Counted from the stretch's first letter, positions 22,353-39,070 are shown. The stretch: 40,375 bases of DNA from a virus (IMGVR_UViG_3300037307_000307); one strand, 5' to 3'. Notes: a model not told the origin generated them from the sequence alone. Program-made: numbers and translations.

Positions 22353-22638
22353 CCTAAAAAAGGCCATTATCGAGGTTATTTTAGTTAAAGATTAACATAT
22401 GGCCCCTAAAGTGACTGTTAAAGATTAATATACCGATAGGTGAGCATGTATATGTAGGGTGTTTTTGATATATGGTATATAATAAAGAATTGCGCCATTC
22501 GCCACTCGCCGCGTTTCTGTGGCATGCTGACCTATCCGTTGCAGGATAGCTGACCTATCCGGTATGGGCATCATCGCCTCACCTCTTTTACCATCATTTA
22601 TTTCCTGCGGTTTCTGAGGGAATAAAAAGGAAAAAAAT

Positions 22639-22728
22639 GCTCCTTTTTGCTCTTAAACGCTCTTAAACGCTCTTTTAAGTTCTTATATTGTCTTTAATGC
22701 TCTTTAATGCTCTTAAATGCTCTAATAG
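22639..22728 (+). repeat. Nine degenerate 10-bp tandem units (consensus GCTCTTWAAY)
   Basis: gctccttttt gctcttaaac gctcttaaac gctcttttaa gttcttatat tgtctttaat gctctttaat gctcttaaat gctctaatag. Confidence 0.85.
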
Positions 22729-22819
22729 TTTTATTATTGCCTATATTTAAGTTTTTGTGTTTTGTCGTATATATTTTAATAAATTATAATTGTTTTGTTT
22801 ATTATAGTAGTAAAAAAGG

Positions 22820-23739
22820 ACAACAATATATTTATAAACTATAATTGTTTAAATATATTGAAATGTTTTTTAAAATTTTTCATTAGAAAAAAAAAACAAA
22901 TTGCTTAAAGGTATTAAGCAATTACAACAGGAGAAAAAAAAATTTATGGAACAAAAAAACGACATAGACACAATAAACCTTAAAGAGTTAAAATTGAAAA
23001 ATGATTTAAACACAATTAAGGTTTTAAGTGATGATGTTAAAAATTTTGTTGTTGAATTAGAAAAAACACAAAAAAATAATTGTGTTGTTCTAAATCAAGA
23101 AAAAACCGAATTTTTGCTTAAAGGATATTTAGGCAAAAAAGATAAAAATGGTTTTAACAACAGGTTAAAATATGCTTATGCTCGTGTTTTGTGTTGTTGT
23201 TTAGGTTATGCAAAAAAACCAACAGGCAAAACAAAAACCTTAATAGAAGATATTAAGAGAGTATCGTTTGATAGTAAAAAAATGGAAATCGGTTTTAACT
23301 TTAAAGATAAAAACAATTTTATCAAATAAGTTTAACAACAAAATTTTAAACACTATAATTTTATTTTTTATTTATGGGTTTATAGCAAAACGCTATAAAC
23401 CCTTTTTTTTGTCTAATTTTATTTATTCTGCTCCTGTCCCTTCTGCTCTCCTCCCCTCTCTCCTCTCGTATCTCGCCATTCGCCACTCGCCGATAGGTGA
23501 GCAGGTTTGCGATTTCTTGAAATCGGTTTCTGTAGTTCTTATTCCATTAAATCTTTAATCCCCTCCCATCTCCTCCCCTCCCCTCCAATCGCCTGTTAGC
23601 AACCTCGCCGATAGGTGAGCACTCTAGTAAACTCTTCGCCACTCGCCACTCGCCACTTCCTCCTGGAGAATCTGGTGGCCTCTTATAACATCTGAAACCT
23701 CTAAACAACAATATATTTATAAACTATAATTGTTTAAAT
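22820..23739 (+). repeat. Perfect 35-bp direct repeat pair (22820-22854 and 23705-23739) containing a TTTATAAA box
   Basis: acaacaatatatttataaactataattgtttaaat occurs twice. Confidence 0.9.
22946..23329 (+). CDS. Hypothetical K/N-rich protein inside the control region
   Basis: ORF downstream of the first 35-bp repeat; unusually A/T-rich codons. Confidence 0.5.
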   Translation: MEQKNDIDTINLKELKLKNDLNTIKVLSDDVKNFVVELEKTQKNNCVVLNQEKTEFLLKGYLGKKDKNGFNNRLKYAYARVLCCCLGYAKKPTGKTKTLIEDIKRVSFDSKKMEIGFNFKDKNNFIK

Positions 23740-23841
23740 TCAATATGGTTAAAAGCACAACAACAAGAGCAAATAAGAGTATATTTGTTTTATGTAGTTT
23801 TGCCTTTAATCAGATAATAATTGTAAGGAGGAAACACAAAG

Positions 23842-24495
23842 ATGGCACAAGATAACATTAGTGATGCAAACAGCGATGTTCGGATTGTTACAGAAGAAGA
23901 GTTTAACAATTTAGAGCATAGTGCTCGTGGAAATCTTAATGGTGACTTTCAAGATGTTTTAGATTATTTAGATTGGTCGATAAATGTTTTTGCAGGAAAG
24001 GGAGATATGGATGTGTCCAAGAAAGGTAAAGCATTTTTAGATGCTGTTCTTACTTTAAGAACAAGATTTAATATGCAGATTAGCACTCATTATCTCAAAC
24101 AATTTTGCGATAACAGAAAGCACAAGAATCAACATATCAAATATATGATGAGTTTGGCAGATATAAAAACCAGTCCGATTAAGACATCATTTAAGGGAGG
24201 AATCGTTAATGGGCGAAGATGTATTGTTCCAAAGATATTTGATATGCTTGTTACAAAGCAAGAGTATCAGGAACAAGATTCTAGAGTTCAGGCATTTAAA
24301 GAGAAATGCCTTGCAGAGTGGAATGCTAGAGCTAAGGCATTAGAGCAACAAAAACTTAATGCTCAGAAATTAGAGATAGTTTATGCATTAGCAGAGGAAG
24401 AGGTTAGCCCAACAGAACTTGAAGAACTCGCCCCAGATTTAATTAAGCAAGACATCGAATTGCAGAAACAACTGCAAGTGCTACAAACAAGATAA
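23842..24495 (+). CDS. Hypothetical protein, first large gene of the right arm
   Basis: 217 aa; GGAGG upstream. Confidence 0.8.
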   Translation: MAQDNISDANSDVRIVTEEEFNNLEHSARGNLNGDFQDVLDYLDWSINVFAGKGDMDVSKKGKAFLDAVLTLRTRFNMQISTHYLKQFCDNRKHKNQHIKYMMSLADIKTSPIKTSFKGGIVNGRRCIVPKIFDMLVTKQEYQEQDSRVQAFKEKCLAEWNARAKALEQQKLNAQKLEIVYALAEEEVSPTELEELAPDLIKQDIELQKQLQVLQTR

Positions 24496-24497
24496 AT

Positions 24498-24632
24498 ATG
24501 GAGTTCAGTTATGAAGATTGGTTTTCATATTTAGATTCGATAGCAGATAGAAAAGCAGAGGCAAGAGATGCCGAACTTCGCAAACAACCATTTATAATAG
24601 ATGAAGAGATAGATTTCACTAGGAAATACTAA
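24498..24632 (+). CDS. 44-aa acidic protein (not in ORF track)
   Basis: MEFSYEDWFSYLDSIADRK...; starts 2 nt after the previous stop. Confidence 0.55.
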   Translation: MEFSYEDWFSYLDSIADRKAEARDAELRKQPFIIDEEIDFTRKY

Positions 24633-24647
24633 TCTTCATTTATTAGA

Positions 24648-24668
24648 TGGCGAATGGCGACTGGCGAA
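24648..24668 (+). repeat. Triple heptad (YGGCGAV)3, dispersed family of 9 copies
   Basis: Plus strand: 24648, 26523, 29346, 31598, 35481, 38791. Minus strand: about 22493, 23473, 23636. Confidence 0.9.
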
Positions 24669-24851
24669 ACTAATTGTTATTATGTCAAATTTTTTAAGAT
24701 GATGGATGCGATTGAACATACTTGCGAAGAGTGTGGAACAGAATTCTTATGCGTAGATGAAGCGAACGATGATTATAGAAATAGATGTTCGACTTGTTAC
24801 AAAAAAATGATACAGGAAGATTACGATGAGGATTATGGTTATTCAGATTAG
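24654..24851 (+). CDS. Small Zn-finger protein
   Basis: CEECG...CSTC plus an acidic tail. Confidence 0.6.
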   Translation: MATGETNCYYVKFFKMMDAIEHTCEECGTEFLCVDEANDDYRNRCSTCYKKMIQEDYDEDYGYSD

Positions 24852-24886
24852 AGTTTTTTAAATGCTGTTGTAATAATATGGTAAAG
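24846..24886 (+). promoter_or_regulatory. Right-arm promoter-like motif GATWAGAGTTTWTTAAA-N-TGTTG-TAWATTATGGTAAA (copies at 24846, 26359, 27702, 30256, 31623, 36933)
   Basis: Six copies at gene junctions with fixed 32-33 nt spacing from the first G to the AT(G/A)G element; contains a TATA-like box. Confidence 0.75.
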
Positions 24887-25072
24887 CAAAATTTAATTCA
24901 GATTCAGATGTGCCAGATTTGTGGTAGGCGTGAGGCAGAACACAAAAGGTTAATGGATGAAAATGAGTATTGGAATATTTGTGATTATTGTAACGAGGTT
25001 ACAGAGGAAAGTTATTGGGAACAATATTGGGATGCTAAAGCTGAGGAGGGTTATTACGATGAAGAATACTAA
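24878..25072 (+). CDS. Small Zn-finger protein
   Basis: CQICG...CDYC plus an acidic tail; start may be the Met at 24908. Confidence 0.6.
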   Translation: MVKQNLIQIQMCQICGRREAEHKRLMDENEYWNICDYCNEVTEESYWEQYWDAKAEEGYYDEEY

Positions 25073-25247
25073 ATATTCAAAACGAGAGGAAAGGGCTATA
25101 AAAGATTTCTTATTAACATTACAAGAGGGTTTCCTTGAGGATGAGGGAGTTAAATATTCTCTCAAAGAATTGCGAAAGAGATTTGATTACGAGATTCAAC
25201 AAAACATAATTGCACGATTACGAAATGGGGAGGATAGAATATGGTAG
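25059..25247 (+). CDS. Hypothetical protein (start MKNTK)
   Basis: Overlap-coupled ORF with GAGGAGG upstream. Confidence 0.6.
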   Translation: MKNTKYSKREERAIKDFLLTLQEGFLEDEGVKYSLKELRKRFDYEIQQNIIARLRNGEDRIW

Positions 25248-25363
25248 ATAACGACCCAGAGCTTTCTTGTCCTATATGTAATAGAGTGGGACAAAATATT
25301 GTAGATGATGGATGGTTTGTTTGCAAGTGTGGACACGCTATTAAGGAGGTGGAGGATGAGTAA
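25241..25363 (+). CDS. 40-aa Zn-ribbon protein (not in ORF track)
   Basis: MVDNDPELSCPICN...WFVCKCGH... Confidence 0.6.
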   Translation: MVDNDPELSCPICNRVGQNIVDDGWFVCKCGHAIKEVEDE

Positions 25364-25691
25364 GGTTGTTGAAGAGTTACAGAAGAGTTTATTTTCTAAA
25401 ATGGATAAGGTTATTGAAGAGTATGTTAAAAAAGAGGATACTCGCAGAGCGACTGCTTTTGCGTTTAAGATGAAAGAGGTGGTTTCATCTTTTGGCGAGA
25501 TTATCTCGGCGATGAATATTAAAGCAAAAAGCGATAAAGAGAAAGAGAAAATATTAAAAGAGTATCATAAAAAGATGGAAGATATGATTCCTATTATTCA
25601 AAAAGAAATAGAGGAGATGATGAATAGGGAAAATCAGATTCCAAATTATATTGGATTTATATTCAACACAGATGAAAGGAGGTTACAATAG
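25356..25691 (+). CDS. Helical hypothetical protein (start MSKVV)
   Basis: GGAGG upstream; E/K-rich helices. Confidence 0.65.
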   Translation: MSKVVEELQKSLFSKMDKVIEEYVKKEDTRRATAFAFKMKEVVSSFGEIISAMNIKAKSDKEKEKILKEYHKKMEDMIPIIQKEIEEMMNRENQIPNYIGFIFNTDERRLQ

Positions 25692-25692
25692 A

Positions 25693-26277
25693 ATGAGAAG
25701 AACTCATAGTTTCGAGATTGTTGGTATTGGAGAGTTTGATGAATTCCCTGCGAAAGTTAAAGAGCAAGAATATCAATCTGTTAATAAGAACGGAGAGCCT
25801 ATTGTTAAAAAGATTTTAACACAAGGAAATAATTCTGAATACGGATGGATGGATGCAAACGGAAAAGTTTATCGCAAGGAAGAGGTTTTCTATAATGTAA
25901 ATGGAAAGTTTGTTCAGAAAGTAAATAGAACAGATAAAGTTCCTGCATATAAGATAGTTAATATTACAGATGCAGTTGAATTGTTAGAAAGCGATACATC
26001 TTTCTTATTACCAAGAAATGAGACAACATTAAAACAATTTAATGAGATTTGTCCTGAAGGAAAGGCACTCAAATTTGTTTATAAGAAATCCTCTGTCGGA
26101 TTTAAATGGGTTAATGCTTTTGTTTTTCAGATTTCTGGAGAGCTTTGTATGCTCACAGGATTAGGAAAAAGAACGGATGCATTAGAGCAATTTAAATTGT
26201 CAAGAAAGAAGGCAAAGGAAACGATGCCGGAGGTTGTCGAAGTTTCTGCTGACGAGGTTGCACCGAACTTAGATTAA
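25693..26277 (+). CDS. Hypothetical protein (start MRRTH)
   Basis: About 194-aa ORF with GGAGG upstream. Confidence 0.75.
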   Translation: MRRTHSFEIVGIGEFDEFPAKVKEQEYQSVNKNGEPIVKKILTQGNNSEYGWMDANGKVYRKEEVFYNVNGKFVQKVNRTDKVPAYKIVNITDAVELLESDTSFLLPRNETTLKQFNEICPEGKALKFVYKKSSVGFKWVNAFVFQISGELCMLTGLGKRTDALEQFKLSRKKAKETMPEVVEVSADEVAPNLD

Positions 26278-26291
26278 TCATAGTCCTTAAA

Positions 26292-26344
26292 GGAACAGGG
26301 AGTGTCGATATAGTTGTCGACTCTTGGAGATGCTTCCCTGTTCC
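26292..26344 (+). terminator. Stem-loop followed by a T-run, just before a promoter motif
   Basis: ggaacaggga...tccctgttcc 10-bp stem, then ggttttttt. Confidence 0.5.
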
Positions 26345-26535
26345 AGAAGGTTTTTTTAGATTAGAGTTTTTTAAAATCTGTTGTAATATTATGGTAAAAA
26401 AATTAAAGACATTCGATTTGGATAAGGTTCAAGAAAAATATTTAATTGAAGATACAGAAAATCTAATTAAAGATTTAACACTTAAAGAATTGAATATGGT
26501 TTATGCGATTATTGAAAGGAGGTGGCGAACGGCGA

Positions 26536-26910
26536 ATGGCGACTGAACAAGAGATAAAAGATAGATTGGCTTATCACACAGGAAGCGAGAATTTCTATAA
26601 GGAACCTTTAAGCAGATGTGTTTACACAGATGGCTTTAAGGAGTTTATGGAGCTCTGCGAGTGTGCTTGGTTATTCACAGATTCTGCAATTCAAATTTCT
26701 ATGGATGCAAAATTCAAATCAGAAGATTTTATTGTTATAAAGATTAAACGAGAGGGCGAGGGAGCTATTGTAACTTTTGAAGATGGCAATTATAAGAGCT
26801 TATTTAAAAGAGAATATAAATATACAGATTTTCCTTTGCAAGAGTTTAGTTTTTATGCGTGTAGAAATGAATTAGGGAGTTATACTTTTATGCTAACTAC
26901 GGAATACTAA
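26536..26910 (+). CDS. DUF6876-like protein (start MATEQ)
   Basis: LAYHTGSENFY...YTDG...AWL...EDGN...YTDFP...MLTTEY matches the family pattern from memory. Confidence 0.65.
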   Translation: MATEQEIKDRLAYHTGSENFYKEPLSRCVYTDGFKEFMELCECAWLFTDSAIQISMDAKFKSEDFIVIKIKREGEGAIVTFEDGNYKSLFKREYKYTDFPLQEFSFYACRNELGSYTFMLTTEY

Positions 26911-26912
26911 AT

Positions 26913-27245
26913 ATGAAAAATAAAGATATAGCTGAGATGTTTGCTAGTGGAAAACATCAGGGTAAGGTAGATAATTTATTCATAGATGGAAATGCGATTT
27001 ATTCTTATGGAGACCATTTTCCGATAGCCATCAGAATTTGGGTAGGCGATGAAATAAAATATCTTTGGAATTCAGATAAGTATTCAAGAACTACTTCTAG
27101 ACATCAATTTTTTGTTTTAAATGCGATTGGTGGAAAAGATAAAATTCTAAAAGAGTTAAACACTCAGCAGATGAAAAGAGTTATATCACTTGGATTTACA
27201 AATGTTAAAGAGCTTATGGCGGAGGCGTTAGATGGAGGTAATTAA
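26913..27245 (+). CDS. Conserved viral hypothetical protein
   Basis: IYSYGDHFPIA...YSRTTSRHQ motif that I recognise from phage proteins. Confidence 0.7.
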   Translation: MKNKDIAEMFASGKHQGKVDNLFIDGNAIYSYGDHFPIAIRIWVGDEIKYLWNSDKYSRTTSRHQFFVLNAIGGKDKILKELNTQQMKRVISLGFTNVKELMAEALDGGN

Positions 27246-27438
27246 AAATAAAAGAAATTCTCGTTGTGGAATTTGCCGTAAAGATATTAAATCAGATTAT
27301 AAGGTATCTCAAAAACACAGAAGTTATCATTTAAGATGTTATTTTAATTGGTTGGATAGAACTCTAAAAAGATTGAAAGATGATAAAAAGAAAATGAACA
27401 GATACAAAAAACATATGATATTGGAGGCGTTAGAATGA
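27232..27438 (+). CDS. Small Zn-finger protein
   Basis: CGIC...YHLRC. Confidence 0.6.
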   Translation: MEVIKNKRNSRCGICRKDIKSDYKVSQKHRSYHLRCYFNWLDRTLKRLKDDKKKMNRYKKHMILEALE

Positions 27439-27707
27439 ACGATAATGATAATTCAGAAATAAGAGCTTTCGATAGTGGTTATAAAGAGGGACAGAAAGAT
27501 ACAGAAGAAAAATTTAAAGAAGATTATTCTCAAAAAATTAATGATTACGATGTTAGAACAATTAAAGCGATGATTAAAACATTAAGAAATAGATTGTCAG
27601 ATTATAAAAATAAAATTCAAAGAATTGAAAACAAAATAGATATAATAAATTCTAAATTAGATGAATTAAAAATACAAGAATCAAACTCAGAGGAGGTAAC
27701 GGATTAG
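27435..27707 (+). CDS. Coiled-coil protein
   Basis: Heptad-patterned charged C-terminal half. Confidence 0.6.
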   Translation: MNDNDNSEIRAFDSGYKEGQKDTEEKFKEDYSQKINDYDVRTIKAMIKTLRNRLSDYKNKIQRIENKIDIINSKLDELKIQESNSEEVTD

Positions 27708-27733
27708 AGTTTCTTTAATCCTATTATTATGTT

Positions 27734-28066
27734 ATGGTTAAACCTACTGAGATTATTAAGGATGGATATTTTAATGCGTATGCCGACACTAATAGATTAT
27801 TTGCTAAATACAAGAATCAAGATTGTGTTGTTGCTTATAGGAAATGTCTTATGGGAGTTGTTATGGTAATTAAGGGAGCTAGAGATTTTATCGGATTGGT
27901 ATTCATTAACGATAATGTTACTAAATGGAGCAATACTGAACTTCATAGAAAGGATTTATCACAGATAATGAAGTTATTCAATATAGAAGATAAAAACGAG
28001 ATGGTAATTGTTAATCAAGATGAGTATGGATTATTTGAAAGGAAGGTTTTATACAATTCGATTTAA
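27734..28066 (+). CDS. Hypothetical protein
   Basis: 110-aa ORF behind the promoter motif. Confidence 0.7.
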   Translation: MVKPTEIIKDGYFNAYADTNRLFAKYKNQDCVVAYRKCLMGVVMVIKGARDFIGLVFINDNVTKWSNTELHRKDLSQIMKLFNIEDKNEMVIVNQDEYGLFERKVLYNSI

Positions 28067-28067
28067 G

Positions 28068-28877
28068 ATGGCAGAAAAAATGATGTTGTGTGGAAGTATT
28101 AAATCATTAAACGAGGTTGTTCTCGATAGGTATATTGCTGAGGAGAAATTCGATGGAGAAAGAATTATGGTTTTAAAGAAAGGTAAAGAGGTTACACTTC
28201 TTAATCGTAGAGGTAGATTTAAGGAAGATGTTTATATCGAACTTAAAGAGGAATTACAAACATTAGATTTTGATTTTATAATCGATGGAGAGGTTTGTTC
28301 TACTAATGGATTATTTAATGACCTTCAAAAAAGAGCTTTATTACAGGATGCTCAAAAAATTGCAGAGCGTCGCGATAGTATTCCTATTATATTTCATATT
28401 TTCGATATTGTAGAGCTCAACGGAAACAATTTAACATTAGAGCCTTTAATGAAAAGAAAAAATATTTTAGAAGATAAATTTCTAAATCTAAAAACTGCAG
28501 AGGTATGTTCATATTTTCAGGGAGCGGAAGAAATTAATGACCTCTGGAAATATGTTGTCGAGAATAAAAAAGAGGGGATTATACTCAAAATAAAAGATAG
28601 CATTTATCAATTTAAAAGAAGTAACTCTTGGCTCAAGATGAAAAACTTTAAAGAGATAGAAATTGAATTCAATAAATACGAACTTAATAACGCAGGGGTT
28701 AAGATAACCAATGGCTTTCACGAAGTCCAAGTGCAAGGGATACCTAGAGCTAATTGGATTATTGAAAAGATGAATAAAGGTGAAGGAGTTAAGGTTATTG
28801 TTCAATACTTAGAAAAATTAGAGCCTTCGGGCAAACTTAGATTTCCAAGTTGTAAAGAGGTGGTTGGATATGATTGA
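28068..28877 (+). CDS. Minimal ATP-dependent DNA ligase (start MAEK)
   Basis: Motifs I EEKFDG, III IIDGEV, IIIa FHIFDI, IV EGIILK and V WLKMK; short OB domain ending LRFP. Confidence 0.9.
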   Translation: MAEKMMLCGSIKSLNEVVLDRYIAEEKFDGERIMVLKKGKEVTLLNRRGRFKEDVYIELKEELQTLDFDFIIDGEVCSTNGLFNDLQKRALLQDAQKIAERRDSIPIIFHIFDIVELNGNNLTLEPLMKRKNILEDKFLNLKTAEVCSYFQGAEEINDLWKYVVENKKEGIILKIKDSIYQFKRSNSWLKMKNFKEIEIEFNKYELNNAGVKITNGFHEVQVQGIPRANWIIEKMNKGEGVKVIVQYLEKLEPSGKLRFPSCKEVVGYD

Positions 28878-29130
28878 CGATTCTCCAAGTGCTATTGTTG
28901 AAAGGATAAAAAAGAATATAGAAGAAAAAAGGAAGCGTGAAGATATTATTTGTCCTTATTGTCAGCACAAACAAGATAATGAAACTAAATATCATTATGT
29001 TACTTATTGGGGAGATGACCCTGAAAAAGAATGTCAATGCGAACATTGTTCTAAGATGTTTTTTGTTAAAGAGGAAGTCGAAAGACAATTTATGTGTAGG
29101 AGGGCTGAAGATGAGTCATCTACTTATTGA
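28864..29130 (+). CDS. Zn-ribbon protein
   Basis: CPYC...CEHC. Confidence 0.7.
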   Translation: MDMIDDSPSAIVERIKKNIEEKRKREDIICPYCQHKQDNETKYHYVTYWGDDPEKECQCEHCSKMFFVKEEVERQFMCRRAEDESSTY

Positions 29131-29344
29131 GGAACATAAATCTGTTTCTGGAAAAACAATCGTGGCTAAGATTATCTCTGCTACAGATTCGGTTGTATTG
29201 GGTTATGTTCAATGGAGTGGTCGTTGGAGACAATATGTTTATTGTCCTCGCACAGAGGTAGAAGTCCAATGGTCTTGGGAGTGTCTCGATGAACTTAAAA
29301 ATTATATTATAGAACTAAATAACAAACAGAGGAAAAAGAAATGA
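29111..29344 (+). CDS. Hypothetical protein (start MSHLL)
   Basis: LGYVQWSGRWRQYVYCP...WSWECL; overlap-coupled. Confidence 0.7.
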   Translation: MSHLLIEEHKSVSGKTIVAKIISATDSVVLGYVQWSGRWRQYVYCPRTEVEVQWSWECLDELKNYIIELNNKQRKKK

Positions 29345-29661
29345 CTGGCGAACGGCGAATGGCGAAATTCTCAAAGAAGCTTTTAGGTAAGCATATCAGA
29401 ACTCAGATGGTATTACATAGATTATCAATTAAGTTTTATGAGAATGGAATTGTGATGAAACCTTGGGGAAATCAGGGAATACATAATTGTCCTCAACAAG
29501 AGCATATTTTTATATCAAAAGAAAATACAGATTTTCTAAAATCATTTTTAGATTTATTCGATAAATCTGAAAAGATTGTTAAATCTTTAGATGACCAAAA
29601 AGAACAAAAAGATTTGCCTCATATTACATTAGAGCCAGTGGAGTCAAAATGCACAAGATAA
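29341..29661 (+). CDS. Hypothetical protein
   Basis: Overlap-coupled ORF; a triple heptad lies over its start (second ATG at 29359). Confidence 0.65.
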   Translation: MTGERRMAKFSKKLLGKHIRTQMVLHRLSIKFYENGIVMKPWGNQGIHNCPQQEHIFISKENTDFLKSFLDLFDKSEKIVKSLDDQKEQKDLPHITLEPVESKCTR

Positions 29662-30242
29662 TTTATTTAATTGTTAAAGGAAAAGATGAATCAGAGGCTT
29701 GGAAGAATCTTGAAGAGCTTCGTTATCAAATATGTGATGAAAAGAAATGGTATGATTACGGAAGCTTTTTCACTGAGGAAGATTCTTCTGCTGTTTCTGG
29801 AAAGGGACGTTGGGGAAATTTAGTTCCGATTGCAAAATTGAATTCTAAAGATGGTAATCTGCATTTAAAGAATGCTTTTAAGACAATAGAGAATCAGTTT
29901 ATTAGAAGTTTAGAAGAAATAAAAAAATGTATTGAAGAATATACTCCAAAAGAAATCTACGATGGTGAGGTTACAGAGGTTAAAAGTAAAATCATAGAGT
30001 CATTAAGAAATAGAAAAATAAAAAACGAGATGAATCGTGATGATAATTTCACTCTAACTTTATTCAGATATCACGCAAGACAATTGCACGATAGTGAAAG
30101 TTATGGTTGGATTTATATTTTAGAAAAAGAGAATACAGAGGCTTGGGTGGAAGGATTTGAAAACGAAAAAGAGTTTAATGTAAGATTTAGTCATAGAGAT
30201 AAAAATGAGTATTGGATTGCACCTATGGATGTGCATTTTTAA
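29649..30242 (+). CDS. Conserved viral hypothetical protein
   Basis: 197 aa; WYDYG...GRW...W..PMDVHF pattern. Confidence 0.7.
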   Translation: MHKIIYLIVKGKDESEAWKNLEELRYQICDEKKWYDYGSFFTEEDSSAVSGKGRWGNLVPIAKLNSKDGNLHLKNAFKTIENQFIRSLEEIKKCIEEYTPKEIYDGEVTEVKSKIIESLRNRKIKNEMNRDDNFTLTLFRYHARQLHDSESYGWIYILEKENTEAWVEGFENEKEFNVRFSHRDKNEYWIAPMDVHF

Positions 30243-30330
30243 TTCTACGAATCCGGATTAGAGTTTATTAAATTCTGTTGGTATATTATGGTAAAACAAA
30301 ATATAAAAATGAAAGGAGGTAGCAATTAAG

Positions 30331-31449: not shown

Positions 31450-31512
31450 AAAGATATTAAACAGATTTTTGATTACTATGTTATTTCTCCGATAGCTTAA
31501 TTGCTATATTTC

Positions 31513-31564
31513 GGCAGGGGAGGTTTTTCCTCACGGAAAGTTCCATAAATTTTCCTCTCCTGCC
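31513..31564 (+). other. GC-rich intergenic branched stem-loop
   Basis: ggcaggggagg...cctctcctgcc 11-bp stem (one G.U) enclosing tttcc-tcac-ggaaa. Confidence 0.5.
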
Positions 31565-31669
31565 TTCATATTCAGAAATGTTATTTTCTAAAAGAGGTGG
31601 CGACTGGCGAACGGCGACGCCAGATAAGAGTTTATTAAAATTCGTTGGTATATTATAGGTATAAATAAA

Positions 31670-33010
31670 ATGGAATTAACAACATTAGATAGATTGAGAA
31701 GAGCAAGAATACAGATTCAGAAAAGTAATCCTTTCTTTGCATATTTAGTTTTGCAATTAAAATTCAAAGAGGCTAGAGAGGGCGAGTTACCGGATTATGC
31801 AGGTATGGGAGTTGCTATAGATGGCACTCTTGTTTATAAAAAAGAGTTTGTTGATAAGATAACTGAACCGGAACTTATCGGAGTTCTCGTCCACGAGATA
31901 TTACACTTGTCCTTATTACATTTAACAAGAAGACAAAAAAGGGAACCTACTATATGGAATGTTGCTGCAGATATATGCGTTAATCAGATTGTAAAAACAA
32001 ATGGATATAGTCTTCCTCGAGGTGCTATTGTTTCAGATTATAATAATAATTGTGAATTTATGGGAGTTAAGATTAACAAGTGCGATAAGAAAACTGCTGA
32101 GCAAGTTTATGAGGAATTAGAACACTTAAAGAGTAAAATGAAAAAAAGATTTGTTCTTGGATATCCATCTATGAACGATAAAGAGGGTGGCGGAAATGAA
32201 GATGGCACTCCATTCGATATTCATATCGAGGGCAAAGATGAGGGAAACAAAAATCAAAACGGAAAAGACGAAAAAGATAATAATAATCAAAATAAAGGAA
32301 ATGGTTTCAATTCAAATTTAACAGAAGAAGAAAAAAGGGAGTGGGAAGAGTTTTGGAAAAGCAAAGCTAACGAGGCTTTGGTTACTGCGAAACTAAAAGG
32401 AAATGTTCCTGCTGGAATTGAAAGATTGGTTGGGCAATTATCAGAGGCAAAAATTGGGTGGAGGGAAATACTCCAAAGATATGTTCAAAGAGCTATTCCT
32501 TATGATTATACTTATTCTAATCCTAGTAAGAAATCGGTGGCTACGGGCTATTATATGCCTAATACAATAAAAGATTATATTGATGTGGTGGTTGCTGTTG
32601 ACACTTCTGGGAGTATTGGTCAGGAGGAACTTAAGGAGTTCTTATCGGAAATTGTGGGTATTGCGAAAGCATTTAGCACTAGAGTTAAAATGAGATTGCT
32701 CACTCACGATGTTAAGGTCTGGGATGATTTACTTATTCAAAATGGAAATATAGCTAAGATTAATGAATTGAAAGTTAAAGGAGGAGGTGGAACATCTCAT
32801 AAAGAAGTTTTAGATTATGTTAATGAAAAATACAAAACTACAAGATTGTTAATCTGTTTTACTGATGGTGATTCTGATTTAGATGAAATAGATGATGGTA
32901 AATATAGATTTGATAAGGTTTTTGTCATATCAGAAAACGGACACGATAATCAACTCAGAGATTTTAAAGCTCATATAATTAAATTAAGGGATTTCAAATA
33001 TGACAACTAA
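31670..33010 (+). CDS. HExxH metallopeptidase-like plus vWA domain protein (DUF2201-like), MoxR partner
   Basis: VHEILH, WNVAADI, acidic low-complexity linker, VDTSGS MIDAS, GGGGT and FTDG. Confidence 0.9.
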   Translation: MELTTLDRLRRARIQIQKSNPFFAYLVLQLKFKEAREGELPDYAGMGVAIDGTLVYKKEFVDKITEPELIGVLVHEILHLSLLHLTRRQKREPTIWNVAADICVNQIVKTNGYSLPRGAIVSDYNNNCEFMGVKINKCDKKTAEQVYEELEHLKSKMKKRFVLGYPSMNDKEGGGNEDGTPFDIHIEGKDEGNKNQNGKDEKDNNNQNKGNGFNSNLTEEEKREWEEFWKSKANEALVTAKLKGNVPAGIERLVGQLSEAKIGWREILQRYVQRAIPYDYTYSNPSKKSVATGYYMPNTIKDYIDVVVAVDTSGSIGQEELKEFLSEIVGIAKAFSTRVKMRLLTHDVKVWDDLLIQNGNIAKINELKVKGGGGTSHKEVLDYVNEKYKTTRLLICFTDGDSDLDEIDDGKYRFDKVFVISENGHDNQLRDFKAHIIKLRDFKYDN

Positions 33011-33167
33011 GCAAGGAAATTTAAAAAAACTACAACAGGAAAATCAGGCATTCAGAGATGAATTAAACAAATTAATTCCTAATAAAAATAGAAAAGAGGC
33101 TTGGGAGCTTATTAATTGGATAGTTGAAAATGAATTACAACAGGAGGAACTTTGTAATGAAAGGTAG
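33000..33167 (+). CDS. 55-aa helical protein (not in ORF track)
   Basis: MTTKQGNLKKLQQEN...LCNER bridges the gap between two genes. Confidence 0.6.
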   Translation: MTTKQGNLKKLQQENQAFRDELNKLIPNKNRKEAWELINWIVENELQQEELCNER

Positions 33168-33615
33168 ATGGGTTTTAATGGGAGTTGTTGGTGTAGATAG
33201 TGGTCAATTATTATTAACAGACCCTTGCTATATAGATAGCGAATGGGAAAAAGAAGATTTTGTAGATTATAGAGCTTACAAACATAAAGACGGAACTCTT
33301 TTGGTTTATCTAAAAGATTTTATTAGTTATGAAGATAAAATTTCTAAATATGGTAAAACTATAAATCAGATGATTGAAAACAAAGATGTTGAAGAGATGC
33401 CTGTCGATAAAAATCATAGATATAATTTTAGTTATAATGCGTGTTCTCAAAAAGATGGAGAATTTAAACAACTTAATTACAAGATGGGACATGCAGGAGT
33501 CGGAGTTGTATTTTCAAGTGGATTGGGAGATGGTTTATACGAGGTGTGGGGCAAGATTGTAAATTCTAAAACATTTGGAGAAAGAATATCAGAGGTCAAA
33601 ATTAAGTTAATTTAA
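33157..33615 (+). CDS. DUF4241-like protein (start MKGRW)
   Basis: GVDSGQLLLTDPCY...FSSGLGDGLYEV. Confidence 0.65.
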   Translation: MKGRWVLMGVVGVDSGQLLLTDPCYIDSEWEKEDFVDYRAYKHKDGTLLVYLKDFISYEDKISKYGKTINQMIENKDVEEMPVDKNHRYNFSYNACSQKDGEFKQLNYKMGHAGVGVVFSSGLGDGLYEVWGKIVNSKTFGERISEVKIKLI

Positions 33616-33616
33616 G

Positions 33617-34480
33617 ATGAATACAAATGAAATTATAGATGCTTATAAAAAGAATATTTCTAAAATAGAGCATATAAATCAATTACTCAATAGAAATAAA
33701 AGTTTGTTCGATAAGATGCAAAGTCAAACAATAACAGATATTTCTAAACTATACTCGGTTGTTTTTAAGAATATAAATCCAGATAAAAAATATGTATGTG
33801 ATGTCGATAATGCAAAATTAGATGAATACTCTTATAACGATGACGATGATGAAAACGATAATATAGAGAAAAGAAAATTATTCTTAAACACAGAGGGTTT
33901 TTCTTTTTCAGGAGTTTTTAATCCTACAAGAAATGAAGATGTTGATACTTCTAAAACTATTTATATAACTTCATTTAGTCAAAAAGGTTTTTTAAAAATG
34001 CTTTTAAGGTTGTATTACAATAAAGATAAAATTATTTCATCTATAAATCGTGACTATAAAAAATCAATAGCTATAAGGTTTTTTGAAGCTTTAGAAAAAG
34101 CAGAGTGTCATAAAATATTAGATTATAATTTAGATTACGATTACTTTAAAATTATTCTTCCTAAAACTATCACTTTAGAATATTATAATAATTTGAAGAT
34201 GGAACCTTTAGAGATGAATTTTATTTTAACAAAAAATGCGAATACTTCGGTGACAATAAACAAGAGAAGAGGTTGGTCTAATGAGAATAATATTCAGTTA
34301 AATGATTTGGAAAGAGTGTCGCAAATATACGATGAGCTTGTAGATTTCTTAAACAAATATTATCAGCACTTAGATGTTCAGGATAAGAGTTTATCAAATT
34401 TCTACAATATATTAAAGGACTCTTTTGCTAAAGAGCTTGTTTTAAATTCATTAAAGGACGAGGAAACAAAAAATGAATAA
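33617..34480 (+). CDS. Hypothetical N/K/D-rich protein
   Basis: 287-aa ORF, tightly packed. Confidence 0.75.
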   Translation: MNTNEIIDAYKKNISKIEHINQLLNRNKSLFDKMQSQTITDISKLYSVVFKNINPDKKYVCDVDNAKLDEYSYNDDDDENDNIEKRKLFLNTEGFSFSGVFNPTRNEDVDTSKTIYITSFSQKGFLKMLLRLYYNKDKIISSINRDYKKSIAIRFFEALEKAECHKILDYNLDYDYFKIILPKTITLEYYNNLKMEPLEMNFILTKNANTSVTINKRRGWSNENNIQLNDLERVSQIYDELVDFLNKYYQHLDVQDKSLSNFYNILKDSFAKELVLNSLKDEETKNE

Positions 34481-35318
34481 CGATTTTATTAGGGTTGTAA
34501 CAGAAGAAGATTTTAACAAAAAGGTTAAACAGGAAGATGATTTTTTCGACATATCAAATAAGATAAAAAGAATTTTAAGTGTTGGAATTAACAACCTAAA
34601 AGATTCCGGATTGAATACTGAAAGAACAGATGTCGATGATGAGGAACTAGATAGCTTCTTAAAAGATTTATGTTCTCAGGGAGAACGAATTGGAGAAAAA
34701 TTTGTAAAAGGACTTGGTCAGATGTATAAAGGAGTTTTAATTAAAGATGAAATATCTATTAGAGAGGATGGTAGAGTATATCGTTACAGATGTCGACGCT
34801 CAGGAATAAACAGAGAAGAACTTTGTAAAATGTTATTACAAAATAAAGATGAGGTTGTTTTAAATGTAGGGCAGGAACGAGCAGATATAATATTCTTAAT
34901 TGTAAATTCTATAATCAAAGATGTTAATGGTAGAAGGGATTATACTTTAGATATAGATACAAGTATTGCTTCTGGCGAAAAAGATATTAAAAGTTTTAAT
35001 GTATTCGATTTCGAGTTCAGAGGTTATAGTAACGATGAAATAATGCCTAAAGGAGAGGTTATGTGTATAAAAAAGATGTCATTTAATCGTGGCAGAATTG
35101 TTTTTGAAGATGAAAGAGGTCACTCTATCGGCAATAATATAATTCACAAGATGTGTATAGCTAAACATAAGAATGTTATTAAAGAGATTAGAGATAATGT
35201 TATTAGTCAATTACAATCTAAAAAGAATGAACTAAACGATACAGAAAAACTTTTAAATGATTTAATGGGTAAATACTTAATAGCCGCAGAATTAGGAACC
35301 GGAGGAAGTGACTGGTAA
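34473..35318 (+). CDS. Hypothetical protein
   Basis: 281-aa ORF; GAGGA upstream. Confidence 0.75.
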   Translation: MNNDFIRVVTEEDFNKKVKQEDDFFDISNKIKRILSVGINNLKDSGLNTERTDVDDEELDSFLKDLCSQGERIGEKFVKGLGQMYKGVLIKDEISIREDGRVYRYRCRRSGINREELCKMLLQNKDEVVLNVGQERADIIFLIVNSIIKDVNGRRDYTLDIDTSIASGEKDIKSFNVFDFEFRGYSNDEIMPKGEVMCIKKMSFNRGRIVFEDERGHSIGNNIIHKMCIAKHKNVIKEIRDNVISQLQSKKNELNDTEKLLNDLMGKYLIAAELGTGGSDW

Positions 35319-35556
35319 TATGAAAAAGGAAATTGAAATGTGCGATTGGTGTGAGGATGAGGAAGCTGTTTCTATAATTACAAAAGGAGAAAATAAAGGA
35401 GATGTTTTATGCGAGAGTTGTGAAGATGATTTCATAGACACTTTAAGAGATGAATATTTAAATGATTATGATTCGGATGCTGGCGAATGGCGAACGGCGA
35501 AAAAGGGTTCGGATAGGTCAGCAAAACGCAAAGATAAAGATGATACATACTTATAA
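35308..35556 (+). CDS. Small Zn-finger protein
   Basis: CDWC...CESC plus an acidic tail. Confidence 0.55.
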   Translation: MTGNMKKEIEMCDWCEDEEAVSIITKGENKGDVLCESCEDDFIDTLRDEYLNDYDSDAGEWRTAKKGSDRSAKRKDKDDTYL

Positions 35557-35845
35557 AGATAATGCAGGAACCGTGGAGCTCACGAAAGCAGATTTAGAAT
35601 TATTTTCTTTAACTAAAATCAGAGTTGATACTAAATGTAATATGTGTCAAAAAGAGATAAAGAGAGGATGTTATTGTTTGGGTAAAAATATTTATTCTAA
35701 ATATTGTCTCGATTGTGCTCCAAAGTTAATTAATAATGCTGTTAAAAGTATGAATGAATATATTAAAACTTTCACAAATCTAAAAAATATTCTAGATAAA
35801 AACAAACAGGAGTATGTAAGAAATAATCTTGCTAATAGTCTATAA
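35540..35845 (+). CDS. Zn-finger protein (start MIHTY)
   Basis: CNMC...CYC...CLDC. Confidence 0.65.
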   Translation: MIHTYKDNAGTVELTKADLELFSLTKIRVDTKCNMCQKEIKRGCYCLGKNIYSKYCLDCAPKLINNAVKSMNEYIKTFTNLKNILDKNKQEYVRNNLANSL

Positions 35846-36486
35846 TGCCTAATTGGAGTTTTAATTATCTTATAGTTGAAGGCGATAAAGATGAGGTCTC
35901 TAATTTTCAAAAGTTTGTTTATCCTAAATATAAAAATGAGGGAAGGGGCGAGGAACAAGAAGTGATAGATTTTAATGCAATTCTTCCTTATCCTGATGAA
36001 CAACAAAGAAAGGATTTGTTATTGCATCACGCTCGTAATTTAAAACATTGTCAAACGCAAAAAGAGAAAGAGGTTTATTATGTTAATGAAAATATAACCG
36101 AGGATATGAAAAAAGAAATGCTATTACTTAATCTTGAAGATGAAGATGCTACAAGTTTTATGGGATGGCACGCTGTTAATTGGGGAACTAAATGGAATGC
36201 TTGTTATTCTAAAGTCGATAATGTAGATGAAAACACATTATTATATCGCTTCGATACTGCGTGGTCTCCTCCGATTAGGGTGTTTGCTAAAATGGTAGAT
36301 ATGTTTCCTAATTTAACTTTCACAATTTTATTTGGTGAGGAAGGAATGTTTTTCAGTGGCCGAGTTCGTGTAAAAGGAAAAAAGGTATATGAAAATATAC
36401 AGGGACCTTATAAACGCAATTGGGCTTATCCTGTTAAGTTTATGAAGAAATATAAACTAACTAAACTTATGAATTATATTAAATAA
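35845..36486 (+). CDS. DUF1281/YubB ferredoxin-like domain protein
   Basis: MPNWSFN, IDFNAILPYP, WHAVNWGTKWN and FDTAWSPP. Confidence 0.8.
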   Translation: MPNWSFNYLIVEGDKDEVSNFQKFVYPKYKNEGRGEEQEVIDFNAILPYPDEQQRKDLLLHHARNLKHCQTQKEKEVYYVNENITEDMKKEMLLLNLEDEDATSFMGWHAVNWGTKWNACYSKVDNVDENTLLYRFDTAWSPPIRVFAKMVDMFPNLTFTILFGEEGMFFSGRVRVKGKKVYENIQGPYKRNWAYPVKFMKKYKLTKLMNYIK

Positions 36487-36487
36487 A

Positions 36488-36754
36488 ATGGGAACATTCA
36501 AAACTATAGATGATATTCATCGAGAAAAAATTGAAAGAGAACATCAAGCTATGAAAGATAGAGCTATTAAAGACACAACTGAAATACCAAAGGTAAAAGA
36601 AAATTTACAAAAACAAAACAAAAAAAAGAGAAGTCCTATTACTAAATTTTTTATATCTATATTATTATTTATTCTATTCTTATTTTGTATTAACTTGGTA
36701 TTGCTTAATGTATGGGTATTAAGGTGGGTAATTAAATCGCTATTTGGTTTGTAA
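36488..36754 (+). CDS. Small membrane protein
   Basis: Charged N-terminus and a long hydrophobic C-terminal helix. Confidence 0.7.
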   Translation: MGTFKTIDDIHREKIEREHQAMKDRAIKDTTEIPKVKENLQKQNKKKRSPITKFFISILLFILFLFCINLVLLNVWVLRWVIKSLFGL

Positions 36755-36755
36755 T

Positions 36756-36929
36756 ATGATTGAAGTAAAAAATGGTAGTGGAAGGGCTAGATGTGTTATA
36801 TGTCAAGAGATTGTTCCTAAAGGTGAGAACAATCAAGTAAATATTACATCTTATAAATTTAGAGAAAGTTGTCATAGGGATTGTATCATACATTGGGAAA
36901 GGATAAAAATAATAAAAGGTTTAGAATAA
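36756..36929 (+). CDS. Small Zn-finger protein
   Basis: GRARCVIC...CHRDC. Confidence 0.6.
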   Translation: MIEVKNGSGRARCVICQEIVPKGENNQVNITSYKFRESCHRDCIIHWERIKIIKGLE

Positions 36930-37005
36930 TCAGATATGAGATTTTTAAATTCTATTGTATATATTATGGTAAAACAAATAAATAAAAATGAAAGGAGGTG
37001 TTAAG

Positions 37006-37527
37006 ATGAATAATTACGAACAAATATTATACGGAAGATTAAAAAAGGTAATTTCTACAACTTGTTTTCAATATCAAAACATAACTTGTGGCGAAGTGGA
37101 AAGTGCTTTGTTCAGGCTTTATGAAGAGGAACATTCTAGTAATTCAAAAGATGAGGATGATGAAAAAGAAGAGCCAGAACAAAAAGAAGAACTTAGCAAA
37201 ATTGAAAAATCTAGAATTAGTTCAAGAAATTATTATCAGAAGAATAAAGATAATATATTGGCTAAAAGAAAAGAAAAAACTAAAGCTAAAAAAACTAAAA
37301 CTAGAACAAGAACTAAATTCTCCGATAAAGCATTTTTAATGTTGGCTGAAAATAGAGATATGCAACCTTTAGAACTTTCAAATAAAATTAAACAGGAGTT
37401 AAATGAGAATGTTTCTGCTAAAGCTATCAGCAACTGGAGACATAATCATAAGGCTGTTGTTGTCAAACTTGAAGAAAATAAATCTGAAGAGCCACAACAA
37501 TCTGTTGAAAATTTCTTTGAAAAATGA
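37006..37527 (+). CDS. Putative DNA-binding protein (start MNNYE)
   Basis: Acidic then basic segments; C-terminal HTH-like VSAKAISNWR; GGAGGT upstream. Confidence 0.6.
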   Translation: MNNYEQILYGRLKKVISTTCFQYQNITCGEVESALFRLYEEEHSSNSKDEDDEKEEPEQKEELSKIEKSRISSRNYYQKNKDNILAKRKEKTKAKKTKTRTRTKFSDKAFLMLAENRDMQPLELSNKIKQELNENVSAKAISNWRHNHKAVVVKLEENKSEEPQQSVENFFEK

Positions 37528-37766
37528 AAAATCCACTAAACAAGAAAGATAAATTTAGTAGTATGGATAGAGATGAACTTACTAGAGTTATCAAAATGCT
37601 TACAATGGAAATAAATGGTAATAGAGGTTTGGCTATACCTCGCTACAATAGTTGGAGTGAGAAAAATATGCGTCAATTTATTAGATTTTTATATCGCAAT
37701 TTAAAAGAGGAATATATTGCTAAAGTAGAAGTGGTAAATAGTTTTGATAAAGATGAAGTTAATTAA
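37524..37766 (+). CDS. Hypothetical protein
   Basis: Overlap-coupled 80-aa ORF. Confidence 0.6.
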   Translation: MKNPLNKKDKFSSMDRDELTRVIKMLTMEINGNRGLAIPRYNSWSEKNMRQFIRFLYRNLKEEYIAKVEVVNSFDKDEVN

Positions 37767-38127
37767 GAATTTAGAAGAATTGAAACTTGGGCAAAGCATT
37801 GCTTGGAAAAGCATATCAGATAATGTTTGGTTATATATAACTAAAGTTAAAGGGTTTCATAAAAAAACAACTTATCCTAATAAAATAAATGGTATCGTAT
37901 ATCAAACTCAAAATTTTATAGATTACGATATTGTCACCATATCAAACAATAATAATATTTATACTATGGGTTATGAAATGTTATTAGGAAGAGTTAGAAT
38001 GTTTCAACACGGAAAGGAACTTATTACAACAACACATTACAATGATAAAATGTTCGAAGCTTGGTTATTAGAAGATGAAAGCGACCATCTATTTATATTA
38101 AAGCACATGCTAGCCGATAGCTTATAG
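37753..38127 (+). CDS. Hypothetical protein
   Basis: Overlap-coupled ORF. Confidence 0.65.
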   Translation: MKLIKNLEELKLGQSIAWKSISDNVWLYITKVKGFHKKTTYPNKINGIVYQTQNFIDYDIVTISNNNNIYTMGYEMLLGRVRMFQHGKELITTTHYNDKMFEAWLLEDESDHLFILKHMLADSL

Positions 38128-38162
38128 GAAAAGTATTTAAAGATAAAGAACTATATTTGGTT

Positions 38163-38771
38163 ATGGATAATTATCTTGAAACTAAAATTAAAGGTTTTTT
38201 ACTCAGAGGATTTAGCAAAGAGGAAGTTAGCAAAATGTTAAATGTTCCTCTCGAGGATGTCCAAAGCATTCAAATCGGCGATGATGTGTCAGTAAATAGC
38301 TCGGCTCTGTTCACAGATTTGCAAAAAGATTTGGCAAAACTTGTATTAAAAGAAATGCAAAATACTAATGGCGATGGTGCTTTAATACTAAATGCTATCA
38401 AACTTCAAGCAGAGTTACAAGATAAAAAATTAATGTTAAGTAAATCAATGGTCACAACAACAAAATTAAGTAGGTCATTTGTTAAAGATAGAGATAAAGA
38501 AATTGAGCGTTTATTCAAAGATGGTAATACAAAAGATATTATCGCTAAAAAATTGGGCATATCTCAAATAATTGTTGAACGCGCTCTGGACCGTTGCAAT
38601 CTTGGTTTGTCAGACGAACTTTGGGAGGGTTTAGATGCGACTGTTATAACGGAAACTGCTGGTCTTGACAATGCTACTCGATTAAAAATATTAGAGGAAG
38701 CTTATAAAAATAATTACTCTAAAAGAAAGGTTAGAGATATTGTTATTCAAATTAAAAATAATAATCAATAA
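38163..38771 (+). CDS. Protein with two HTH-like segments
   Basis: GFSKEEVSKMLNV and TKDIIAKKLGISQIIVERAL; TATA-like tttaaaga at 38136. Confidence 0.65.
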   Translation: MDNYLETKIKGFLLRGFSKEEVSKMLNVPLEDVQSIQIGDDVSVNSSALFTDLQKDLAKLVLKEMQNTNGDGALILNAIKLQAELQDKKLMLSKSMVTTTKLSRSFVKDRDKEIERLFKDGNTKDIIAKKLGISQIIVERALDRCNLGLSDELWEGLDATVITETAGLDNATRLKILEEAYKNNYSKRKVRDIVIQIKNNNQ

Positions 38772-38815
38772 TATGAAATAAATAAATTCGCGGCGACCGG
38801 CGACTGGCGACTAAT

Positions 38816-39070
38816 ATGTTAAACTGGATTAAAAATAAACTAGCACAAAGAAGAATTAACTTAGAGAATGAGATTAGACAAACTCATTACGATTTGCTAC
38901 ATATTGGTATGCACGGAAAATTAACTTGGGATATGTATTCACACACCCAGGATAAATACACTCATCTTCAGGCAACATATTTGCAAAGATATGGTCATTA
39001 TTTTAGGGAGGGAGATATTGGGGCAAACTTGCCGGATAGGTCAGTACATGGAACAGAACGGAAAAGATAA
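38816..39070 (+). CDS. Hypothetical protein
   Basis: 84-aa ORF starting 4 nt after a triple heptad. Confidence 0.55.
   Translation: MLNWIKNKLAQRRINLENEIRQTHYDLLHIGMHGKLTWDMYSHTQDKYTHLQATYLQRYGHYFREGDIGANLPDRSVHGTERKR

Follow-up and report, generated by a model that had tools for sequence, protein, structure and literature searches.

The stretch of viral DNA IMGVR_UViG_3300037307_000307 (40,375 nt in its full length, hereafter the window or W) holds nine copies of a 21-mer in which a GC-rich heptad is repeated three times in direct orientation, (YGGCGAV)3. A pattern search places six of them on the plus and three on the minus strand. We found that this heptad triple is conserved and under selection as nucleic acid; it is most likely a variant of known dispersed control sites, not an element without precedent. 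Judged from sequence, it may quite plausibly be an oriented site at which a regulator of the non-structural genes binds, with the sense strand being the one that is read. The nine copies are the following:

22491-22511, minus strand: copy 1 (CGGCGAG TGGCGAA TGGCGCA), inside a minus-strand open reading frame (ORF) running from 22574 to 22425
23472-23492, minus strand: copy 2, found by pattern search, fused directly on its 5' side (minus sense) to GCTCACCTATC
23635-23655, minus strand: copy 3, with AGGAGG before it and GCTCACCTATC plus an extra GGCGAG unit 14 nt after it
24648-24668, plus strand: copy 4, with the stop of a 44-aa ORF 15 nt before it and the in-frame ATG of the next ORF within it
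26523-26543, plus strand: copy 5, with the Shine-Dalgarno (SD) sequence AGGAGGTG running into unit 1 and the start codon of the DUF6876 gene in unit 3
29346-29366, plus strand: copy 6, codons 3-9 of a gene here called gene B; the best-conserved site, present in five of five genomes
31598-31618, plus strand: copy 7, in the gap between the ATPase and DUF2201 genes; syntenic in five of five genomes, where GGCGT and TTGGCG occur as unit variants
35481-35501, plus strand: copy 8, within a 72-aa zinc-ribbon gene (35338-35556)
38791-38811, plus strand: copy 9, 19 nt past the stop of a 202-aa helix-turn-helix (HTH)-like gene, with an ATG 4 nt further on at 38816

Eight of the nine copies match (YGGCGAV)3 exactly, and the copy at 22491 has a single mismatch in unit 3 (TGGCGCA). 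The plus-strand triples span 24.6-38.8 kb and the minus-strand ones 22.5-23.7 kb. An initial annotation of this DNA had reported nine always-triple heptads at these places. The exhaustive pattern scan bears this out, as do two controls: no match to the pattern was obtained in 100 dinucleotide-preserving shuffles of the window, and the structural left arm (22 kb, below 22491) contains no heptad triple even at two mismatches. The GGCGA pentamer is almost confined to the triples in the window, and after removal of the arrays single heptad units are not enriched there. The contrast in base composition that had been pointed out was also found, the 21-mers forming sharp GC islands in a window of 32% G+C. 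The copy at 38791 is identical in L172, an independent JGI assembly. This copy is therefore not an assembly artefact, a possibility the initial annotation had raised itself.

Related contigs were found via homologs of the DUF2201 protein, which is 66-78% identical in the closest relatives (L120-L123). These four carry 16 further heptad triples, bringing the total to 25 in five genomes. The unit number is always three, with no two- or four-unit array among the 25. More distant relatives that were examined, including L176, have no heptad triple, and another 12 kb read from the L120 contig yielded none. Conserved positions were read from ortholog mapping across the five genomes. All five have a triple in the first codons of gene B and another in the ATPase-DUF2201 gap, where the flanks can barely be aligned. 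A triple inside the 35338 gene is found in W, L122 and probably L120; W and L120 share one upstream of the ParB-methyltransferase gene (copy 9 in the window) and one following the second gene of the array. At least four positions stay syntenic in L120-L123 though the flanking proteins are only 40-90% identical, and the concern that the copies might lack conservation can thus be set aside. In the ATPase-DUF2201 gap the units are altered together (TGGCGTA three times in L120, TGGCGTT twice in L123) and the triple format is retained. When the 25 arrays are aligned, the 21-mer generalises to (N-GGCG-W-N)x3: only GGCG at unit positions 2-5, repeated with a 7-nt period, is near-invariant. This core is retained at each unit in 23-24 of the 25 arrays, and position 6 is A or T. 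A rule of one heptad per transcription unit, which would fit six of seven units in the window, was rejected, as it fails in L120.

Since 7 and 3 are coprime, any reading frame of the 21-mer gives the same seven codons in rotation. Where the heptads are translated, they use codons that the genome avoids: CGG and CGA account for 1% and 5% of Arg codons, GGC for 12% of Gly and GCG for 12% of Ala codons. As these otherwise avoided codons are imposed by the heptads, selection acts on the nucleic acid. In heptad-free relatives, the homologs of gene B have unrelated residues at the heptad-coded residues 3-9. Both observations agree with the earlier view that the element is not driven by the peptide.

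The right-arm copies had been described as sitting at or near gene junctions. Four of the six overlap a start codon or lie within 5 nt of one (P = 0.0004 for random placement), a count that takes the ATG within the 24648 copy as a start. Relative to the heptads, starts are located inside, 2-4 nt off or 38-51 nt off. The annotated proximity of one copy to an ATG (4 nt, 38791 copy) and of another to a promoter (31598 copy, 0-5 nt before a promoter-like element at 31615-31671) was confirmed. That three copies supply the ATG itself holds in part. It is correct for the 26523 copy, whose ATG in unit 3 is a real start (position 2 of the DUF6876 Pfam profile aligns to residue 6), and possible for the 24648 copy. 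It does not apply to the 29346 copy: because the internal ATG is replaced by ACG in L123, the start of gene B is the ATG 5 nt upstream of the copy. At 26523 the upstream 51-aa ORF terminates directly after unit 3. The array at 3760 in L120 shares this geometry, with the upstream ORF stopping right after unit 3 and the next gene beginning in unit 3; in the orthologous array of L122 the SD sequence and the ATG come after it. The gene and the putative leftward transcription unit referred to here and below are:

26536-26910, plus strand: DUF6876 gene, with its start codon inside unit 3 of copy 5
22425-22596, minus strand: putative leftward unit with an initiator-like AAATGATGGTAAAAG, an SD sequence AGGTGA and a 49-aa ORF through copy 1

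When considering the heptad triples within gene arrays in the five genomes, all 22 are co-directional with the genes. The three minus-strand copies had been regarded as non-coding, which is doubtful for the 22491 copy, as it lies inside a small minus-strand ORF with its own promoter-like initiator and SD sequence. The initiator-like box of this putative leftward unit belongs to the same family as the rightward promoter-like elements. Because a plausible leftward unit covers the 22491 copy, the polarity switch appears to track local gene direction. For the minus copies 2 and 3, a 35-nt repeat at 22820 and 23705 could be a divergent promoter. The switch would thus more simply follow the local direction of transcription, and the orientation signal for replication or translocation that had been suggested to explain it is unnecessary.

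The initial annotation knew of no described equivalent. This is too strong, since stoperators, start-associated sequences, HutP sites and period-7 arrays are precedents. Like the heptads, the gp71 stoperators of L5 (Cluster A mycobacteriophages) are dispersed short asymmetric sites, often in short intergenic spaces. Their orientation strictly follows transcription, their polarity flips between the arms, and their function depends on orientation; among the heptads, orientation follows transcription in the 22 of 22 gene-array copies and in the 22491 copy of the leftward unit. Stoperators differ in being 13-bp non-repetitive sequences, present more than 20 times per genome in both arms and bound as duplex by a monomeric two-domain immunity repressor that halts elongation, whereas the heptads come as three tandem units, in nine copies, in the non-structural module only and with no more than a candidate reader. 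The start-associated sequences of Cluster K mycobacteriophages (SAS/ESAS) are asymmetric, restricted to the non-structural half and of one orientation, as are the heptads; they hug starts and sometimes overlap the upstream stop. They are conserved across subclusters before different genes, and their function is unknown. In contrast to the heptads, SAS contain the SD core and precede the start by 3-7 bp; no such core (AGGAG or GGTGA) is present in the heptads, which often hold the start codon, are internally repetitive and have two conserved copies off starts. It is a second motif of the window, CGGATAGGTCAGC, that resembles the SAS consensus GGGATAGGAGCCC.

A unit number of three has its closest counterpart in the HutP site of the Bacillus subtilis hut leader RNA, with three motifs at a 7-nt period over 21 nt. 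HutP reads the three motifs on single-stranded RNA through a three-fold face, and by analogy such a face is a direct structural reason for always three units. The HutP motif is XAG with 4-nt spacers, compared with GGCG in the heptads, and two HutP sites flank a terminator. No HutP-like protein was found in the 36 ORFs of the right arm and control region, and no terminator partner is evident. Contiguous 7-bp units are also known from omega, the ParB of pSM19035, of which one dimer takes one unit on duplex DNA and three units are bound tightly. Omega arrays differ in having 7-10 units of WATCACW in mixed orientations upstream of few promoters, as opposed to three direct units. Finally, the arrays of cluster 156,623 (bioRxiv 10.64898/2026.10.21.760802) combine a fixed tetramer with a variable trimer, as the heptads combine GGCG with 3 nt. 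They lie between co-directional genes and have no known protein partner or function. They differ in their reverse-complement copy, their predicted beads-on-a-string fold and their occurrence mostly in Patescibacteriota; the likeness is one of architecture.

In the mechanism we propose, the 21-mer would regulate the non-structural gene module in cis. Its reader would be a sequence-specific protein that binds through three equivalent surfaces, provided by a trimer, by three subunits or by three domains, and recognises the G-rich strand, which would be the sense strand, either as mRNA or as non-template DNA exposed in transcription. The single-stranded sense strand is slightly favoured as substrate over the duplex. 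With the site at a start codon or a stop-start junction, its occupation would prevent or modulate the initiation of translation, or the elongation of the transcript into the next gene, and the resulting regulon would comprise about six rightward and three leftward units. Protein binding, single-stranded reading, repression on binding and gene B as the reader are all four what we infer. A site for a multimeric DNA- or RNA-binding regulator, as the initial annotation had put first, is the best-supported reading of an element that is syntenically conserved, restricted to one module, enriched at starts, strictly triple and selected at the nucleotide level, with the binding itself putative.

As tentative reader, the product of the following gene may be considered, which would then also control itself:

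29341-29661, plus strand: gene B (106 aa), tentative candidate reader, with the best-conserved heptad in its own first codons and a predicted structure

Autoregulated nucleic-acid binders often carry their own site in the first codons. The structural model of gene B (pLDDT, predicted local distance difference test, of 75) consists of four strands followed by a long helix. In a structural search among 48,161 chains, Pur-alpha took ranks 1-3 (Z 5.1-4.6), with PC4 and Sub1 lower down. Gene B resembles Pur-alpha in its bbbb-alpha topology, but the match is weak (Z 5.1) and there is no sequence similarity to Pur-alpha or PC4. Pur-alpha binds the guanines of GGN repeats in single-stranded DNA or RNA and has been crystallised with GCGGCGG; the bbbb-alpha unit dimerises and occurs in phages too. 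On the basis of the model, gene B as reader is a tentative lead and not a finding. The full proposition, that a virus-encoded Pur-alpha/PC4-like gene B product reads the three GGCG cores on the sense strand and runs the heptad regulon including its own gene, we consider unlikely.

Matches to the ribbon-helix-helix (RHH), HutP, TRAP or similar families were absent from the 36 right-arm and control-region ORFs, where small RHH proteins can escape Pfam. DUF7995 occurs in the heptad-bearing genomes and is absent from its place in L176, in a small sample. It was rejected as a reader suggested by phyletic pattern, being a broad family (229 clusters in the protein library) with a confident model that lacks a PDB match. 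In the window the DUF7995 protein (29649-30242) has an invariant C-terminal D-x-H; its pLDDT is 90.5, and Foldseek returned no significant PDB match.

Several results weigh against an oriented site of this kind, or against gene B as its reader. In predicted sense-strand RNA the unpaired fraction is 0.43 for the heptads versus 0.49 for the flanks, i.e. there is no gain in accessibility. No flanking element at a fixed distance was found on either side across the 25 aligned arrays, so no geometry linked to a TATA box or to an SD sequence is apparent. Two conserved copies are located away from starts, one upstream of a promoter-like element (31598) and one within a gene (35481). The strong skew of G over C on the coding strand could partly account for the co-orientation, and minus-strand transcription over copies 2 and 3 is something we infer from the sequence. 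Regarding gene B, a Z of 5.1 is under the level that the tool deems meaningful and Foldseek gave E values of 0.77 or worse. The gene is also present in the heptad-free L176 and L129 and does not co-vary with the element.

The left arm of the window encodes large leftward proteins without family matches. A tyrosine recombinase gene adjoins the repeat-rich control region of about 1.6 kb, which holds three of the heptad triples together with other repeat families in both orientations. The right arm is a dense rightward array of small genes including an ATP-dependent ligase, an AAA ATPase, the DUF2201 metallopeptidase/VWA protein and the ParB-methyltransferase. Cumulative GC skew turns near 20-22 kb, and the coding strand has a strong G over C skew. 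No close relative was found among 185,579 genomes or in a phage collection. Besides the genes, the following elements neighbour the heptads:

31615-31671, plus strand: member of the promoter-like family (about 55 nt) abutting copy 7, which is 0-5 nt upstream
31512-31573 (approximate), plus strand: hairpin with TTCATATTCA behind it, shortly before copy 7
35512-35522, plus strand: GATAGGTCAGC motif paired with copy 8; like pairing occurs in L120 at 17361 and 1111

The promoter-like element of about 55 nt (GATTAGAG, TTTATTAAA, about 12 nt, TATATTATGGTAAAAC) was observed at 24838, 26351, 27694, 30248, 31615, 34382 and 36928 in the window and at 935, 1376, 2842, 3579, 4111, 9598 and 12037 in L120, and stands at the head of several gene groups. 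The hairpin before copy 7 keeps its position with divergent stems in relatives including the heptad-free L176, and the word trailing it is degenerate in L120 and L123. Hairpins at this conserved position after the ATPase gene are located at about 31512-31573 in the window, 2270-2310 in L121, 4445-4484 in L122 and 8640-8670 in L176; compensating stem changes can be seen by eye, and (C/T)TCATATTCA follows. The alignment upstream of copy 7 was too poor to give a consensus fold. A similar hairpin-plus-word closes a short pentamer tract in L173 (11590-11620). As a partner of the heptads the word TTCATATTC was rejected, since AT-rich DNA contains it too often (55 occurrences versus 26 expected). Only the hairpin-plus-word at the ATPase-DUF2201 gap is notable, yet it is also found in heptad-free L176.

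Near copy 8 the CGGATAGGTCAGC motif is located 9 nt downstream and the next start 38 nt downstream, and GCTCACCTATC, found at copies 2 and 3, represents the GATAGGTSAGC motif in inverted form. This second motif, CGGATAGGTCAG(C/T) or GATAGGTGAGC, is found in the window on the plus strand at 22435, 23492, 23610, 35512 and 39035 and on the minus strand at 22526 and 22549, and in L120 at 703, 1153, 14438 and 17383. It often lies 2-12 nt upstream of starts, for example that of the ParB-methyltransferase gene in W and L120. Several heptad arrays have this motif fused to them or close by, and in the control regions of W and L176 it forms palindromes. The window further contains seven tandem 10-nt units (T/C)GCTCTTAAA at 22648-22723. 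These resemble the bacterial boxA (CGCTCTTA); iterons or an operator array of the leftward unit are equally possible. The exact 35-nt repeat (22820-22854 and 23705-23739) contains an AACAAT...ATTGTT inverted repeat flanking a TATA-like TTTATAAA. It precedes both rightward control-region genes and is a candidate operator plus divergent promoter.

In unrelated viruses, a strict pattern scan of IMG/VR (2.9 million viral contigs) returned only 12 stretches of heptad arrays, often several per contig; a first, loose pattern scan had given only GC-rich chance matches. The viruses concerned have 38-72% G+C and arrays of 3 to more than 8 units. In most cases a short loop and then an inverted array follow, which would form long hairpins tolerating G-U pairs. 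TGGCGAA/TAGCGAA palindromes were observed in L079 (535-657 and 13794-13916), L180 (2455-2523 and 3926-3994), L187, L178, L184 and L185; those of an AT-rich tailed phage lie on either side of the gene for the major head protein. No homologs of gene B were found in the heptad-array contigs of IMG/VR. By analogy, the likeness of the window heptads to these arrays is a lead only.

Short G-rich tandem units in viral non-coding DNA are also known from VIPR, whose vrRNAs combine 9-16 pentamers of the form YNNGG, hypervariable at NN, with a structured 3' tail. A role of the heptads as VIPR guide RNA was rejected, as they have a period of 7 and not 5, three units and nearly constant non-core positions. 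A role as VIPR target was likewise rejected: with the 1-nt-skip rule applied, the best match of the L173 and window tracts was 10/14, equal to scrambled targets. A likely VIPR locus was seen in the related contig L173 (10001-14130): the gene at 10001-10720 encodes a RAMP-like protein with a GSFG loop, the one at 10751-11461 encodes a ParB-like protein with a DGRHR motif, and clear YNNGG pentamer arrays at 11642, 13682 and 14083 are punctuated by GG(C/T)AAGG...TCATATT. Homologs of these RAMP-like and ParB-like genes were not found in the window. On the minus strand of the window, ANNGG x6 and ANN(G/A)G x8 tracts are located at 23426-23474 and 23558-23594, directly downstream of two minus-strand heptad arrays. 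They have the VIPR-like 5-nt period, but with A in place of the pyrimidine and low-complexity variable positions.

In the heptad-free L176, GGCGW occurs 67 times on the coding strand versus once on the other, with a strong context effect on Gly codons. A dedicated polar word in this relative was rejected, as a synonymous-codon shuffle identified the bias as the mirror, and by-product, of a depletion of SD-like words (GGAGG 0 seen versus 11 expected, AGGAG 1 versus 21, GGAGA 8 versus 24). Across the whole L176 locus (16.8 kb), SD-word avoidance has pushed Gly and Arg codons to GGC and CGA before contexts starting with G. Avoidance of SD-like words inside genes is far weaker in the window than in L176.

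Among the other explanations, a duplex DNA operator of the stoperator kind is the main rival, conceivable but rather doubtful. Here a viral repressor would bind the 21 bp and cause an orientation-dependent block of initiation or elongation, with three 7-bp units over two helical turns, about 240 degrees apart. Such an operator would fit the clustering of three copies in the 1.6-kb control region among repeat families of both orientations, the promoter-like element abutting copy 7 in five of five genomes, and the L120 array at 18819, which begins at an initiator-like ATGG. The L5 stoperators show that duplex sites may be strictly tied to direction, omega reads contiguous 7-bp heptads, and the accessibility test gave no support for reading on RNA. 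The distance to TATA-like and initiator boxes is, however, not fixed, coding starts and not promoters are where several copies are embedded or fused, and no RHH or HTH repressor could be assigned among the 36 ORFs. Furthermore omega-type arrays come in mixed orientations and with differing numbers of units, which is never the case for the heptad triples. Quite improbable is a shared role with the wider class of heptad arrays in unrelated viruses, of which the window triples would be half-elements. The 12 stretches from 2.9 million contigs have the same unit, mostly as array, loop and inverted array, and the preprint bioRxiv 10.64898/2026.10.21.760802 reports period-7 arrays with an inverted copy between co-directional genes. 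Yet an inverted partner is present at 0 of the 25 arrays of the window lineage, the unit number in the other viruses ranges from 3 to more than 8, and in the AT-rich example, a tailed phage, the palindromes bracket the major head gene and so belong to a different module; no proteins are common to the window and those contigs.

The initial annotation had also suggested a recombination joint, that is, a short shared sequence at gene borders for cassette exchange between related viruses. Gene content does differ directly after some copies: the gene behind the heptad is DUF6876 in the window and a homolog of the 26913 gene in L120 and L122, an extra 84-aa gene stands after copy 9, and the small genes after copy 4 differ from those at its L120 counterpart. 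The tyrosine recombinase gene beside the control region would also be in keeping with recombination. Most copies, on the other hand, keep the same flanking genes, with copies 6, 7 and 8 having identical neighbours in all relatives covering them, and many other junctions vary without a heptad. Direct 21-bp repeats would also favour harmful deletions, and the strict triple format and conserved core suggest a reader and not mere homology. We regard a joint as very unlikely. Least credible is a polar signal in the DNA that would serve replication, priming, nuclease control or translocation, its sites being located on the template of the lagging strand to either side of an origin at about 24 kb. 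The polarity flips between 23655 and 24648, beside iteron-like repeats, and the turn in cumulative GC skew near 20-22 kb would suit an origin. The 22-kb left arm should then carry sites too and has none, the spacing is irregular, and the flip is explained by local gene direction; the apparent polar word of L176 arises as a by-product when SD-like words are avoided.

A few well-studied phage groups have provided the known examples of dispersed oriented control sites, and the logic of stoperators and SAS is only partly understood. The heptad triple represents such sites in a clean form that is easy to recognise, with three units, a four-base core and conserved positions, in a virus lineage that is uncultivated and very AT-rich. 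It offers a handle for finding the regulator and for marking regulated genes in related metagenomic viruses, and it is useful for testing a three-site reader on single-stranded or duplex nucleic acid. As unrelated phages have the same unit, sites coded in heptads may be commoner than the literature shows. If gene B is indeed the reader, the phages with hairpin arrays would point to a widespread, undescribed class of heptad-reading regulators in viruses.

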